Below are positions 22,259 to 26,189 of a stretch of 26,209 nt of DNA, piece after piece (the first letter of the stretch is position 1; every line of letters starts with the position of its first letter). The stretch comes from a virus. Position numbers and translations under genes: made by a program. The stretch lies in UHGV virus genome UHGV-0185026; one strand, given 5' to 3'. The notes beneath the pieces were generated by a model. That model was not told the origin of the DNA. It was given only the letters and a program-made list of their open reading frames with translations, and did no database searches.

Positions 22259-22774
22259 TCACAGCAAACCGAATGAAGCACCGAGGCCAGTCACGGTATC
22301 AACTGCACTCGCCATCGCAGGATTAGCCTGTAAACGGGCCTGCAATGAAACAGCAGCCAACGCCATCAGTCGTGTAACAGAGTTAATGCTGCTGATCGCA
22401 TCACGACGGCCTGCACTGGTTTTTACATCGCCAGATACCGCACCTGCAGCAACACGCCCGATCTCTGCGGTTGCACTCATGACGTAATGTGGCAGTTTCT
22501 CTTTTGCCACCTCATTAATCGGTACACATGGCAGACAATGAATCTGTGCCAGAAAACCATCTACCAGCGTTGAATCTTCAGTCAGATCGGTAAGCAGCCA
22601 GATTTCTGGTGCGGTTAATAAATGAGGTTGAGCTGGGTTCAGCTTGTTCCGCAGAATCTGCACATTCATGCCAGCACGTTCTGCCAGTTGCACCAGGTTG
22701 TGGCGCAATGCGAATGCACGACAGGCTTCATCAAAATGTGGATGTTTGGAAACTTGGTAATCAAACATGGTCAA
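22259..22774 (-). CDS. cII: CII-like lysogeny-establishment regulator (phage 186 CII family)
   Basis: 171-aa [29 protein letters not shown]...[25 protein letters not shown]...GASFGLL, which I recognise as closely resembling the 186 CII pattern. Confidence 0.75.
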
Positions 22775-22800
22775 TGCCTCTGATGTATCTCAGAATCGAA

Positions 22801-23022
22801 CTAATTAAGGTTTAGATTGCATTCTGAAAGCGCATCAACGGTCATTGCTGCTATGTTGATCATCACTTTTTCGCGTTTTTTATCTTTGCGCAGACGGTGA
22901 CGGATAAGGCGTCCATCAGCCAACATGTCATTGATGGTATCGATGGATAGCCCTGTCAGCTCGCTATAGCGTTCAATAGTCACATGAGGCGTGGTAAGAG
23001 TGATTGAAATGTTAGGTCTCAT
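22801..23022 (-). CDS. apl: Apl/Cox-type excisionase and lytic-switch regulator
   Basis: 73-aa helix-turn-helix protein, first gene of the leftward early operon, divergent from cI. Confidence 0.55.
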
Positions 23023-23147
23023 GATGCAACATTCCTCGTTTAATGATGATTAATCAGGACGAATACGGATCGTTTGTATTTTGTGAACACCATAAACATA
23101 CGATCGCACAGTGAAATCGTCAAGATAAAAGTTCACTTGGAGTGACC
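23023..23147. promoter_or_regulatory. Lysis-lysogeny switch region between divergent apl and cI (expected face-to-face promoters and operators)
   Basis: 125-bp intergenic region between the divergent regulators; contains short repeated ATACGGATCG/ATACGATCGC elements with GATC sites. Individual promoter hexamers were not resolved. Confidence 0.5.
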
Positions 23148-23717
23148 ATGAATTTGGAGAAAGGCGGACGAGGCGCTATAGAGCGCATGGTAGAAGCTTA
23201 TGGATTCAAGACTCGACAGGCGTTGTGCGATCATTTAGGAATCTCTAAAAGTACACTCGCCACACGCTACATGCGTGACTCATTCCCAGCAGAATGGGTA
23301 ATCCAGTGCGCCCTTGAAACAGGCACCTCGCTTAATTGGCTCACAACCGGGCATGGTTCAAAGCAAACTTCAGGTAATACAAATACTATGGAAGTTGCTA
23401 AATATGTATTATCTGATGGGGCCTTGTGTGAAGACGGTTTTTATATTTTCGATAGAGAATTTCTACCGTCGACATTCAAGAATCTTTTTGTAATCACAGA
23501 TAATAATTCTGAATTTATTTGTGATAAGGAATTTGATGATATACGTGATGGTAAATGGGTAATAAGTATTGATGGCGAAATAACGATCCGTGACATTACT
23601 CGTTTACCCGGTGGAAGAATCTTCGTCGAGGGTGGAAACAGAGCCTTCGAATGCAAGATAGAAGACATTGAAATAATTGGTAAAATTATAAGTTTAACAG
23701 TCAAGTATGTTAAATAG
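23148..23717 (+). CDS. cI: CI-like immunity repressor (186 CI family)
   Basis: ORF 23142..23717; ATG at 23148 preceded by a GGAG ribosome-binding site. N-terminal helix-turn-helix (LCDHLGISKSTLATRYMR) and the ALETGTSLNWLTTGHG segment match the 186 CI pattern. Confidence 0.8.
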   Translation: MNLEKGGRGAIERMVEAYGFKTRQALCDHLGISKSTLATRYMRDSFPAEWVIQCALETGTSLNWLTTGHGSKQTSGNTNTMEVAKYVLSDGALCEDGFYIFDREFLPSTFKNLFVITDNNSEFICDKEFDDIRDGKWVISIDGEITIRDITRLPGGRIFVEGGNRAFECKIEDIEIIGKIISLTVKYVK

Positions 23718-23732
23718 TACCGGGAGGAAATT

Positions 23733-23924
23733 ATGCTTGGTAAGGTATTTTTTGTGGTTTTGTCATGTTCTTTGTTATTAAACCCACTAGCTACCTATGC
23801 TAGAAATTATCCCTGCTCAGGGAAAAAGGGAGGTGTTTCTCACTGTACCTCTGATGGCAAATTCGTTTGCAATGATGGAACTATTAGTAAATCCAAAAAA
23901 ATCTGTACTAAAAACTCACGATAA
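23733..23924 (+). CDS. Small secreted or lipid-anchored Cys/Lys-rich protein (candidate lysogenic-conversion moron)
   Basis: 63-aa ORF with a strong GGGAGGA ribosome-binding site, an N-terminal signal peptide ([18 protein letters not shown]) and a mature part with four Cys and many Lys. Lies between cI and int. Confidence 0.5.
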
Positions 23925-24112
23925 CTTTTGCTTTTATATCTGCGCCTAAAATAAAAATGAGCCACAGGTTAACCGCAAAAGTTACATGCTCACATAGCAA
24001 AAAGAATAGCCTACTTCATTATGGCTTCAGTGAGATGTATGGTCGCAGGATTTCATACATTGACACTGGTTATACATACAGTAAAAATGCTCTCTATTGG
24101 AGGGCATTTTTT

Positions 24113-25144
24113 ATGGCTGTACGAAAACTCACCACAGGAAAATGGCTTTGCGAATGTTACCCCGCCGGACGTAGTGGGCGTCGTGTGCGTAAACAATTCG
24201 CCACCAAAGGCGAAGCACTGGCTTTTGAGCGTCACACGATGGAAGAAACCGAAGCAAAGCCCTGGCTGGGTGAATCAGTGGATCGTCGAACACTGAAAGA
24301 CGTGGTTGAGCTATGGTTCAAACTACATGGTAAATCACTGACTGCTGGGCAGCATGTCTATGACAAATTGCTGCTGATGGTTGACGCTCTGGGCAATCCC
24401 CTTGCAACTGATCTCACATCTAAAATGTTTGCCCACTATCGAGATAAACGCCTGACAGGTGAGATCTACTTCAGCGAGAAATGGAAGAAAGGAGCAAGCC
24501 CGGTCACCATTAACCTGGAGCAAAGCTATCTAAGTAGTGTTTTTAGCGAACTATCCCGCCTGGGCGAATGGTCGTATCCGAACCCACTGGAGAACATGCG
24601 AAAATTCACCATCGCAGAAAAAGAGATGGCATGGCTTACCCATGAGCAGATTGTTGAATTGCTGGCTGATTGCAAACGACAGGACCCAATTCTGGCACTG
24701 GTAGTTAAGATATGCTTAAGCACAGGCGCACGTTGGCGTGAAGCCGTAAATCTTACCCGCTCACAGGTGACCAAATACCGAATTACCTTTGTAAGAACGA
24801 AGGGGAAGAAAAACAGAAGCATCCCTATCAGTAAAGAGCTTTACGAAGAGATCATGGCGCTTGATGGGTTCAATTTCTTTACAGACTGCTATTTTCAATT
24901 TTTATCCGTGATGGAAAAAACGTCTATCGTGCTCCCTCGCGGTCAACTGACACACGTTCTGCGCCATACGTTTGCGGCGCACTTCATGATGTCGGGTGGA
25001 AATATCCTGGCCTTACAAAAAATTCTCGGGCATCACGATATAAAAATGACTATGCGTTACGCACATCTGGCACCGGATCACCTGGAAACTGCATTACGGT
25101 TTAATCCGCTGGCAACACTACCAACATCAATAGCAAGTTTTTGA
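24113..25144 (+). CDS. int: Tyrosine integrase (P2/186 Int family)
   Basis: ORF 23957..25144; start placed at MAVRKLTTGKW with a GGAGGG ribosome-binding site. C-terminal catalytic region HVLRHTFAAHFMMSGGNILALQKILGHHDIKMTMRYAHL. Confidence 0.9.
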   Translation: MAVRKLTTGKWLCECYPAGRSGRRVRKQFATKGEALAFERHTMEETEAKPWLGESVDRRTLKDVVELWFKLHGKSLTAGQHVYDKLLLMVDALGNPLATDLTSKMFAHYRDKRLTGEIYFSEKWKKGASPVTINLEQSYLSSVFSELSRLGEWSYPNPLENMRKFTIAEKEMAWLTHEQIVELLADCKRQDPILALVVKICLSTGARWREAVNLTRSQVTKYRITFVRTKGKKNRSIPISKELYEEIMALDGFNFFTDCYFQFLSVMEKTSIVLPRGQLTHVLRHTFAAHFMMSGGNILALQKILGHHDIKMTMRYAHLAPDHLETALRFNPLATLPTSIASF

Positions 25145-25202
25145 AAATGCGTATTTTGCCCTGTTGAGCTAATATTCTTTTTTTTCACATGGAGCACTAT
25201 CA

Positions 25203-25472
25203 ATGAATAAGTTTCAGCATCAGGGAGCGGAATTGCGCAACAGAGCCAAAGAATTGGCTTTATCCGTACTTAAAACTCACCCAGATGCCCAAAAAAACGG
25301 CAACGGCGTTAAGCAAGCTGAGGTATTTCGTCTAAGCGGCCTCGATTGGGGAGAAAAACGGAAAGCAACAAGTTCGAACCAACAATATTGGGTTGTTGCA
25401 CTATTGCGTGAACTAGAAGAGGAGGGGTTAGTCGAACAGATTGAAGATAGAGGCCCCTGGCGTCTAAGGTAA
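25203..25472 (+). CDS. Hypothetical small protein (possible winged-helix) at the prophage-host junction; phage or host origin unresolved
   Basis: 89-aa ORF with a GGAG ribosome-binding site, followed by a terminator hairpin. Confidence 0.4.
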   Translation: MNKFQHQGAELRNRAKELALSVLKTHPDAQKNGNGVKQAEVFRLSGLDWGEKRKATSSNQQYWVVALLRELEEEGLVEQIEDRGPWRLR

Positions 25473-25541
25473 AACAAGTGGCGACAAAGTGGCGGCAGCG
25501 GTTGGCATTACCCCGTAATAACCACCACTGACCACCAACCC

Positions 25542-25573
25542 AACTTATTGTTTTTACTCTAACTTATTGTTTT
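25542..25573. repeat. Two direct copies of AACTTATTGTTTT, 19 bp apart (possible att or Int arm-site region)
   Basis: Direct repeat seen between the int-side genes and the host TetR gene. Coordinates approximate. Confidence 0.3.
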
Positions 25574-25577
25574 CATT

Positions 25578-25606
25578 AACCCATTTACATAAATGGGTTT
25601 TTTGTT
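25578..25606 (+). terminator. Rho-independent terminator
   Basis: Perfect hairpin AACCCATTTAC-ATAAATGGGTT followed by a T-run on the plus strand. Confidence 0.5.
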
Positions 25607-25622
25607 ATCTAAAATTTATCTA

Positions 25623-26189
25623 CTACCCTGCAACCCTCTCAACCATCCTCAAAATCTCCTCGCGCGATAGCGGCTTACGGTCGGTGACAAAATGCAGCGT
25701 CATCCCCTCAATAAACGCATCAAGCGCGCGGGCGGTTCCGGGTTCAAACCATTGTTCGAGCGTTTGCTGACTGCGCTGCATCCAGTTTTGCATTACCGTT
25801 TTTAATAGCGGTTTTCGGCTAGCCAGCGCGTAGAGCTGGTACATCAGCTCCATGTTATCCGGCGTTGCAACCTGTGAGCTGTAGATCATATCGGTGATAG
25901 CCTGGCATGCGCCTTGAGCATCACTAACATCGCTAAAAAATGCCTGATATTGCCGGGACATAATCTCAGTAAAACTGCTGAACGCCTCCAGCAACAACTC
26001 ATCAATTCCTGAAAAATAGTAGGTCATCGATCCCAACGGTACCTCGGCAAGGGTAGCAATTTTGCGGTGCGTAACAGCATGTATTCCGTAAAGTTTCACC
26101 GCCTCCAGCGTGGCCTGGATAATTTTTTCTCGCCGTTGCGGATCGTTAGCGCGACGCATGTCATTTCCTCTGTCTGCAATTGTGTACAA
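25623..26189 (-). CDS. TetR/AcrR-family transcriptional regulator (host gene flanking the prophage)
   Basis: 188 aa with an N-terminal TetR-type helix-turn-helix ([40 protein letters not shown]); composition differs from the adjacent phage DNA. Confidence 0.8.

Follow-up and report, generated by a model that had tools for sequence, protein, structure and literature searches.

In the present study, we followed up a small open reading frame (ORF) near the right end of a viral DNA of 26,209 nucleotides, UHGV virus genome UHGV-0185026, the whole of which is called the window here. The ORF occupies positions 23733..23924 on the plus strand, starts with ATG and encodes 63 aa, as read from the open-reading-frame list and the sequence, and RefSeq gives identical coordinates. 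It lies between the repressor gene cI and the integrase gene int. This part of the window is the lysogeny region of a 186-like prophage of the P2 family, whose insertion site adjoins rcdA and ybjJ of the host. The first-pass annotation, made from the letters alone, had described an ORF with a strong ribosome-binding site, an N-terminal signal peptide for an exported product, and a mature part of about 35-40 residues with four cysteines and many lysines; each of these points was confirmed, the export as a prediction. We found that the product belongs to the YdcA family. Its family identity, its export signal and its placement in the lysogenic operon, taken together, are very probably correct.

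The ATG with its proximal GGGAGG follows the cI stop codon (23715-23717) by 15 nt. The 23 N-terminal residues contain one Lys, a 12-residue hydrophobic core (grand average of hydropathy 1.57) and T-Y-A preceding the predicted cut. This cut site is of the small-x-A type and is kept across 28 aligned homologues, in which the conserved N-[YT]-P-C then follows. The mature peptide of 40 aa contains 4 Cys, 7 Lys and 2 Arg, with 2 Asp as the only acidic residues; its isoelectric point is 9.7 and its net charge +7. An AlphaFold2 model of the mature part (predicted local distance difference test score 80) is a small knot centred on a beta-hairpin, and Foldseek of the model against the BFVD viral structures gave no significant match. 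A precursor with a Sec/signal peptidase I signal peptide and a mature mini-domain bound for the periplasm is firmly supported as a prediction by these features, and the four invariant cysteines would form two disulfides there, by predicted pairing. The lipoprotein option raised earlier, with VLSC as lipobox, was rejected. Cys12 is missing from most homologues in the 28-member alignment, and their conserved small-x-A site falls about 11 residues past it. As Cys12 is not conserved, the product is not a lipoprotein and lacks the lipobox of the receptor-blocking lipoproteins Llp and Cor.

The family assignment was obtained from several resources. The ORF product matched NCBIfam NF007463 (PRK10040.1-2) with E 1.3e-33 and 114.6 bits (cut-off 93) along the full profile (positions 1-58 of 58), and PHROG 6000 with E 3.1e-34. 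Pfam PF27300 "YdcA" is precomputed on an identical protein (P0001) and on close homologues, and some newer RefSeq records name the product "YdcA family protein". Our own Pfam scan, run with a copy without the PF27300 model, gave as the sole match of the ORF a sub-threshold, GULLO2-like one (E 0.076), which is due to chance. All residues invariant across the 28- and 96-member alignments (P-C-S, K-G-G, C, F-x-C-x-D-G, S-x-S-K and C) are present in the ORF product; the leaders of the YdcA homologues are variable and end in small-x-A. The motif of these residues may resemble a circular permutation of DUF3761, a kinship which we do not claim. The family includes the models NF007462, NF007463 and NF007464 (PRK10040). 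The ORF product falls in the prophage subfamily NF007463/PHROG 6000 and not in the chromosomal ydcA equivalog NF007462, for which it scored 68.5 bits, under the cut-off of 118. It is strongly supported by these matches that the ORF is a genuine YdcA-family gene, already catalogued with an NCBIfam equivalog and a PHROG of its own, and hence that the entity itself is not new. The ORF product is therefore no orphan: the protein is a real, predictedly exported Cys/Lys-rich one, and it has a family, a chromosomal paralogue, and relatives on plasmids and probably in a type IV secretion system (T4SS).

The family is large. A profile search of 1.84 billion cluster representatives returned 465 clusters at 50% identity with E <=1e-3, and 267 with E <=1e-10. 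The identical protein heads a 355-sequence cluster, labelled 'Conjugal transfer protein' in UniRef, and the representative sequence is found on at least 1000 contigs. YdcA-domain members were found in alpha-, beta- and gamma-proteobacteria and on Acinetobacter and Rhizobium plasmids, and temperate phages of Moraxella, Acinetobacter, Pseudomonas and Haemophilus have YdcA-like genes. A relative is encoded by 481 IMG/VR contigs, with 80 identical E. coli prophage copies among the matches listed. E. coli YdcA has been described as "a small protein (57 aa) of unknown function" with a signal sequence and a predicted periplasmic location (PMC11340327). Literature searches by RefSeq accession or family names gave nothing on function, and in the literature searched no member of the YdcA family has a known function so far.

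The gene is frequent in E. coli. A 471-nt probe centred on the ORF had matches in 670 of 5426 complete E. coli genomes, with at least 80% of the probe covered in 590, and the whole cI-ORF-int block was present in 628 of the 5426 (~11%, about one in nine). E. coli strain B (NZ_CP115178.1) carries the cI-YdcA-int module at 96% identity. The first-pass annotation had named loss of the ORF from close prophages as evidence against its proposal; the ORF was present in all 22 sampled genomes with the same cI. Among these 22 rows, insertion sequence elements interrupt the module in two, and a KAP NTPase gene lies 3' of the ORF in one. The window allele was compared with three diverged prophage alleles, from E. 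coli (L010), Klebsiella (L014) and Enterobacter (L016). In the 32-codon mature core, synonymous differences amounted to 17.5-20 of ~21 sites (proportion pS 0.85-0.96, saturated) and non-synonymous differences to 1.5-2.5 of 75 sites (pN 0.02-0.03). The signal-peptide codons change freely (pN 0.5-0.6) with the cleavage-site pattern retained. This contrast fits a leader which is cleaved off and functionally unconstrained, ahead of a mature peptide under tight constraint. As a separate observation, a 3-kb contig of a metagenome-assembled genome named 'Bacillota bacterium' (L021, JAEWTL010000113.1) encodes a 100% identical mature peptide in the same apl-cI-ydcA-int order, and this contig is almost certainly binning contamination.

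These numbers bear directly on the possibility that the ORF has no function of its own, being a hitch-hiking remnant or a spacer which affects int translation or expression. Such a possibility would agree with the AT-rich mosaic segment and its 189-nt non-coding spacer, and with phages 186 and ESSI2_ev129, which manage without the ORF. It is effectively refuted by dN/dS, since synonymous sites are saturated while the peptide is nearly invariant; the strong Shine-Dalgarno sequence is also retained, the ORF is in every sampled prophage with the same cI, and the domain is conserved from alpha- to gamma-proteobacteria across the 465 clusters.

The features of the region are collected in Table 1. 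In phage 186 the lysogenic operon consists of pL, cI, int, orf69 and a predicted terminator, and cI overlaps int with nothing between. In the window the order is pL, cI, the ydcA-like ORF, int, orf89 and a terminator-like hairpin at the same relative place as that of 186. A simple consensus promoter scan did not detect the pL-equivalent site, the promoter function of which is proposed from its homology to 186. A terminator scan found no plus-strand terminator between cI and int. Furthermore, an Rfam scan of 22700-25700 on both strands, with E up to 1, gave no match, so no RNA element explains the region. Since the putative promoter aligns with the mapped 186 pL and no terminator precedes int, the ORF should be co-transcribed with cI in the lysogen. 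The earlier placement of the ORF within the lysogenic transcript agrees with this, and with the terminator-like element after the operon. It is a well-founded inference that the ORF is the second cistron of the lysogenic operon and would be expressed along with the repressor in lysogens. The ORF is absent from a review of P2-like regulatory regions (PMC3448106).

Table 1. Features of the lysogenic operon in the window
Feature	Position	Strand	Basis
Putative pL-equivalent promoter, TTGAAA-17 nt-CAACAT	23004..23032	+	Column-for-column alignment with 186 pL -35/-10 (TTGCGA / CATGAT)
cI, 186-type immunity repressor, first cistron	23148..23717	+	Phage_CI_repr 2.8e-33, Phage_CI_C 2.5e-27; RefSeq 'phage repressor protein CI'
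Shine-Dalgarno sequence GGGAGG of the small ORF	23722..23727	+	Read from sequence, 5 nt 5' of ATG
Signal-peptide coding part, residues 1-23, predicted cleavage TYA/RN	23733..23801	+	Hydrophobic core and small-x-A
Mature YdcA domain, 40 aa, four invariant Cys, plus stop codon	23802..23924	+	NF007463, PHROG 6000, PF27300
AT-rich non-coding spacer ahead of int	23925..24112	+	GC 0.37; holds mosaic junction and sigma70-like site
Sigma70-like site, TTGACA-17-AAAAAT, directly 5' of int	24060-24088	+	10/12 consensus positions
int, P2/186-type tyrosine integrase	24113..25144	+	Int_N 3e-32, Phage_integrase 6.8e-22, PHROG 1 8.7e-75; RefSeq coordinates agree
89-aa ORF, last cistron, in 186 orf69 position	25203..25472	+	RefSeq hypothetical
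Intrinsic-terminator-like hairpin and T-run, operon end	25578..25607	+	9-bp stem then TTTTTGTTATC; adjoins attachment site and host rcdA

On the minus strand of this region there are a CII gene (Phage_CP76, E 3.4e-42) and a 73-aa gene in the Apl/Cox position, and host rcdA begins at 25623, also on the minus strand. The sigma70-like site could be a separate int promoter. A mosaic junction was located at ~24053, because similarity to foreign int modules begins at query 908-914, which corresponds to window 24049-24055. The int modules which match from that point belong to Klebsiella and E. coli phages and to ~500 E. coli genomes with other immunity modules. As their similarity starts only there, cI, the ydcA-like ORF and ~130 nt of spacer travel as one mosaic unit. 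The sequence from 23400 to 24100, comprising the part of cI for the C-terminal domain, the small ORF and the spacer, is an AT-rich block (GC 0.32-0.37). The 89-aa ORF at the operon end had no Pfam, NCBIfam, PHROG or PADLOC match and only faint winged-helix-like ones; a relationship to 186 Orf69 was rejected, the two sequences not being similar.

The first-pass annotation had also considered a toxin-like peptide. A cationic antimicrobial of this kind would be released from lysing or induced cells against competitors, or would be toxic to the host envelope. The product resembles defensin-type peptides in being small, cationic (+7) and, by prediction, disulfide-rich, and a YdcA-family gene is among the genes unique to antimicrobial-positive Pseudomonas protegens strains (PMC13541209). 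However, a Sec signal alone reaches the periplasm only, with no route across the outer membrane, and no immunity, maturation or export gene adjoins the ORF. The selection is extremely purifying and not diversifying, the chromosomal paralogue is harmless, and the gene, carried by ~11% of E. coli genomes, would be constitutively co-expressed with the repressor in healthy lysogens. We consequently dropped this part of the earlier proposal and consider an antimicrobial or toxic role very unlikely.

The place between cI and int is used differently among relatives of the prophage. It is empty in phages 186 and ESSI2_ev129. In vB_EcoM-813R9, which shares its integrase and its rcdA site with the window prophage, the slot holds a 558-aa ATPase matching PD-Lambda-1 with E 3e-120 (L006:804-2480). 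Other sister alleles hold YdcA followed by a KAP NTPase which matches the PADLOC candidate PDC-S20 with E 1e-171 (L010:4198-5529). In an Enterobacter prophage, a HEC-04-like ATPase gene was seen directly after int (L018:5281-6843). With PD-Lambda-1, KAP NTPase and HEC-04-like cargo, the lysogeny end of 186-like prophages behaves as a defence hotspot, and a hotspot between cI and int is described for K139-like Vibrio phages (Rousset et al. 2022, PMC9122126). The suggestion that this position suits lysogenic cargo or an exclusion factor is therefore well taken, as K139 Glo, PD-Lambda-1 and the KAP NTPase all occupy it.

Diverged YdcA alleles are found in the same slot in E. coli, Klebsiella and Enterobacter prophages, the gene of the Enterobacter ones being 53 nt past cI and 2 nt ahead of int, and Yersinia species have the same cI-ydcA order. 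In the Haemophilus phages HP2 and S2, an unannotated 60-aa YdcA-like ORF begins with an ATG that overlaps the stop codon of cI, and orf1(S) and int come after it. P2-like prophages of beta- and gamma-proteobacteria, namely of Comamonas, Aquabacterium, Hydrogenophilales and Stutzerimonas, have in this order a helix-turn-helix repressor gene, one unknown gene and a YdcA-domain gene, near tail gene D; one of these prophages has an MBOAT acyltransferase gene after the YdcA-domain gene. YdcA-like genes also stand among hypothetical genes in Moraxella phage Mcat17, between coat and tail genes (L002:3935-4114), and, unannotated, in Acinetobacter phage Ab11510-phi (L003:4001-4099). These last copies are outside a lysogeny module, which indicates that the YdcA-like gene moves as independent cargo. 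The literature searched appears to contain no report that the gene is systematically linked to the repressor across Proteobacteria, that HP2 and S2 carry it, that it is associated with nucleases or that Dis2 is probably kin; the last two points are described below. A peptide which is nearly invariant despite scrambled codons, which lies in the repressor operon and which recurs in Haemophilus and beta-proteobacterial phages is likely useful to lysogens.

The best match of the YdcA profile in the PDB was Dis2 (Lpg0823; 7MUC/7MUD chain AN) of the Legionella pneumophila Dot/Icm T4SS, with both lobes matching. The E-value was 1.8e-4 with leaders included; for the domain only it was 0.09 with a shallow profile and 0.0097 with a 96-sequence profile. 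Foldseek against 350,542 chains also placed Dis2 on top (TM score 0.62, identity 36-39%, E 0.36). One Dis2-like protein has a PF27300 match, and two-domain KMGG-variant members of the family (P0078, P0079, P0082, P0083) align with Dis2 with a pairwise E of 2e-5, collinear over both lobes. A search with a Dis2 fragment returned two truncated Dis2-like proteins only, too few for a deep Dis2 alignment. We consider homology of Dis2 and the YdcA domain likely but not proven, the significance being borderline. Dis2 is a two-lobed protein with five disulfides, on the outer-membrane side of the cap, in contact with DotC, DotD and DotK, and the literature reports no homologue of it beyond Legionellales (PMC8486379, PMC12716638). 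The protein, which was published as specific to the species and as having no structural homologue, looks like a tandem YdcA-domain protein.

This kinship leads to one alternative, in which the domain would act as an adaptor that docks on outer-membrane lipoprotein or secretin-type complexes (T4SS, type II and type VI secretion systems (T2SS, T6SS), pili, OmpA-like) and so changes how a surface machine works; invaders that depend on pili or conjugation might be blocked, for example, or the envelope made more stable. Its evidence is the agreement of profile and Foldseek searches on Dis2, the PF27300 match, the two-domain members, and the fact that DotC, DotD and DotK are lipoproteins touched by Dis2 under the outer membrane; in addition, one family member lies in a T6SS cluster, another is fused to VasL, and the UniRef label speaks of conjugal transfer. 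On the other hand, no T4SS gene was among the genes flanking the ORF in the P2/186-like prophage, and no secretion-system gene was seen near it in the window prophage or its allelic variants. Furthermore, T4SS assembly proceeds without Dis2, for which no role is known (PMC12716638), the similarity is borderline, and the strong positive charge and the nuclease fusions would be left unexplained. Both this role and the example effects are unlikely in our judgement.

The nuclease fusions are the second clue from the wider family. In 6 of the 149 best cluster representatives (P0173, P0164, P0114, P0219 and P0182 among the labels), a YdcA domain stands directly after the signal peptide and a nuclease follows: Endonuclease_NS in three, SNase in two and a PLD-type in one, which are three unrelated folds. 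Further architectures are fusions to VasL or DUF4124 and two or three tandem copies. The neighbourhoods of 76 species-level YdcA-family loci showed no single conserved operon partner, and the contexts are heterogeneous save for the prophage and SNase associations. A secreted SNase gene adjoins the YdcA gene in six of the 76, all alpha-proteobacterial, with overlap in four; such a gene is likewise beside the YdcA gene on a Rhizobium plasmid. The loci behind nuclease adjacency or fusion are L048, L063, L064, L070, L075, L098 and L009/L100. Prophage lysogeny modules make up five Enterobacterales-type loci (one of them a probably contaminating contig in a Bacillota metagenome-assembled genome) and about 5-6 beta/gamma-proteobacterial ones. 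The net charge of the YdcA domain averages +3 in the family, and the prophage copy, with +7, is the extreme.

Other contexts were also noticed. On the Citrobacter plasmid NZ_CP053574.1 (L008:4926-5327), the gene of a 133-aa YdcA-domain protein belongs to a T6SS cluster; tssE precedes it, and a GIY-YIG nuclease gene and a VasL-domain gene come next. Beta-proteobacterial members of 101-128 aa (P0056-P0062; L049, L054, L097) have a second, C-terminal Cys-rich module, CxCx5CTGPRGGxYCx7-8Y, and two beta-proteobacterial members gave weak PBCV_basic_adap matches.

The chromosomal paralogue suggests a different explanation, in which the prophage copy is host-fitness cargo doing the job of chromosomal YdcA, namely periplasmic stress or envelope homeostasis (e.g. 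acid or organic-acid tolerance), with no action on phages or DNA. Over residues 27-59, the mature part shares ~79% identity with the chromosomal YdcA of E. coli. An E. coli W strain lacking ydcA was sensitised to 3-hydroxypropionate, and induction of ydcA by acid and YdcI is reported (PMC7642389); the rydC-ydcA intergenic region is listed among constitutive promoters of RpoS, the stationary-phase sigma factor (PMC5493296). The majority of the family are chromosomal orphans in varied contexts, and the extreme purifying selection fits a conserved host target. However, chromosomal ydcA is probably present in most E. coli hosts, so that another copy would bring little benefit, effects of dosage or timing apart. 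That the gene is closely linked to the repressor time and again, in P2-like prophages from several orders, calls for an explanation from the side of the phage; the other cargo of the slot is anti-phage, and the published ydcA phenotypes are indirect and from a single study. Ordinary envelope housekeeping is a realistic possibility, although on balance somewhat unlikely, and in that case the gene would be a routine moron.

Our preferred reading is that the YdcA domain may be a small periplasmic binding module, expressed in the lysogen. Its ligand would be an invariant one of the envelope, e.g. a polyanion such as DNA, or a structure close to the outer membrane. That the peptide is nearly invariant in phages which differ in immunity type and host suggests that its ligand does not vary either and is not a fast-evolving phage protein. 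Judging from the nuclease fusions and the charge, the domain would bind a polyanion, e.g. DNA, or serve as an anchor in the envelope; Dis2 suggests docking beneath the outer membrane. The free domain, made from the immunity operon, might then protect the lysogen at the envelope by hindering the entry of foreign DNA, which is superinfection exclusion in the broad sense, as Glo does in K139. This suggestion is made because the slot is otherwise used for defence genes and because K139 has a periplasmic exclusion protein there. Envelope-level protection of the lysogen against incoming DNA is a tentative reading, which we regard as possible and still short of probable.

Several observations weigh against it. 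The family is mostly non-phage, with ~10 of the 76 species-level loci in prophage lysogeny modules, and no PADLOC defence model matches the small ORF. The ydcA phenotypes (3-hydroxypropionate, acid; PMC7642389) point to general envelope physiology rather than phage defence. The link to nucleases could equally mean envelope anchoring, and Dis2, being acidic and binding proteins (PMC12716638), gives no support for DNA binding by the YdcA domain. In addition, the expression, export, disulfides and phenotype of the ORF are all inferred. A more specific form of the proposal, in which YdcA is a polyanion- or DNA-binding periplasmic mini-domain and the free domain from the immunity operon of P2/HP1-type prophages captures or obstructs DNA incoming by superinfection, transformation or conjugation, is quite unlikely. 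It would explain the recruitment of the domain by three nuclease families and by SNase operons, and the hosts in question would be E. coli, Haemophilus, Moraxella and Acinetobacter.

Knowing what YdcA does would give an annotation to several hundred protein clusters and to the y-gene ydcA among them, would explain the accessory domain of secreted nucleases, and would probably place Dis2 in a wider family. If envelope-level exclusion is true, a soluble periplasmic mechanism would be added to the defence repertoire of the cI-int hotspot. If DNA capture is true, it would be a new, sequence-independent principle of exclusion and the first functional handle on E. coli YdcA and Legionella Dis2.

Among known systems, the nearest in build is E. 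coli YdcA (b1419), which like the ORF product has a signal peptide and one ~35-aa domain, PCSGxKGG(V/I)xxC...F(V/I)CxDGxxSxSKxxC, with four invariant Cys. The two differ in that the chromosomal gene lies in the rydC-ydcA-hokB locus, adjoining hokB and rydC, while the ORF belongs to a phage lysogenic operon and its product is more basic. Dis2 shares with the ORF product the type of a small, exported domain pinned by disulfides, which for the ORF product is predicted; it has two tandem lobes and five disulfides, whereas the ORF product has a single domain and four Cys. The slot cargo PD-Lambda-1 and KAP NTPase (PDC-S20) has a position identical to that of the ORF, in sister prophages which share the integrase and the rcdA attachment site. 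These are large cytoplasmic ATPase-type systems; the YdcA-like gene, in contrast, is tiny, its product is predicted to be exported, and it can co-occur with a KAP NTPase rather than replace it.

A parallel in position is Glo of phage K139. The gene in the K139 slot is glo, which the GenBank record annotates as 'periplasmic protein; involved in phage exclusion' (see also PMC3952083). As far as these two sources describe it, Glo is like the ORF product in that its gene takes this slot in a P2-related lysogenic operon, with the order cI, orf2, glo, int, and in being, as predicted for the ORF product, a soluble periplasmic protein with a signal peptide. It is unlike the ORF product, by the same sources, in having 137 aa and few cysteines, and its exclusion role comes from published experiments, while that of the ORF is a conjecture. 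Homology of the two was rejected (hhalign probability 0.15%). The genes of the Ltp/Sie2009 type lie between int and the repressor gene. Their products, as Ltp of TP-J34, are small exported proteins which are made in the prophage state from the lysogeny module and block DNA injection (PMC3952083). These proteins of Gram-positive hosts are lipid- or membrane-anchored, bind variable tape-measure proteins and are unrelated in sequence, whereas the YdcA-like peptide is predicted to be soluble and is invariant and not a lipoprotein. With exclusion proteins of the Glo, Ltp and Sie kind, the ORF thus has in common the position in the lysogenic operon and the predicted export, though not homology to Glo. 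It is a further, non-homologous member among the exported proteins of lysogeny modules.

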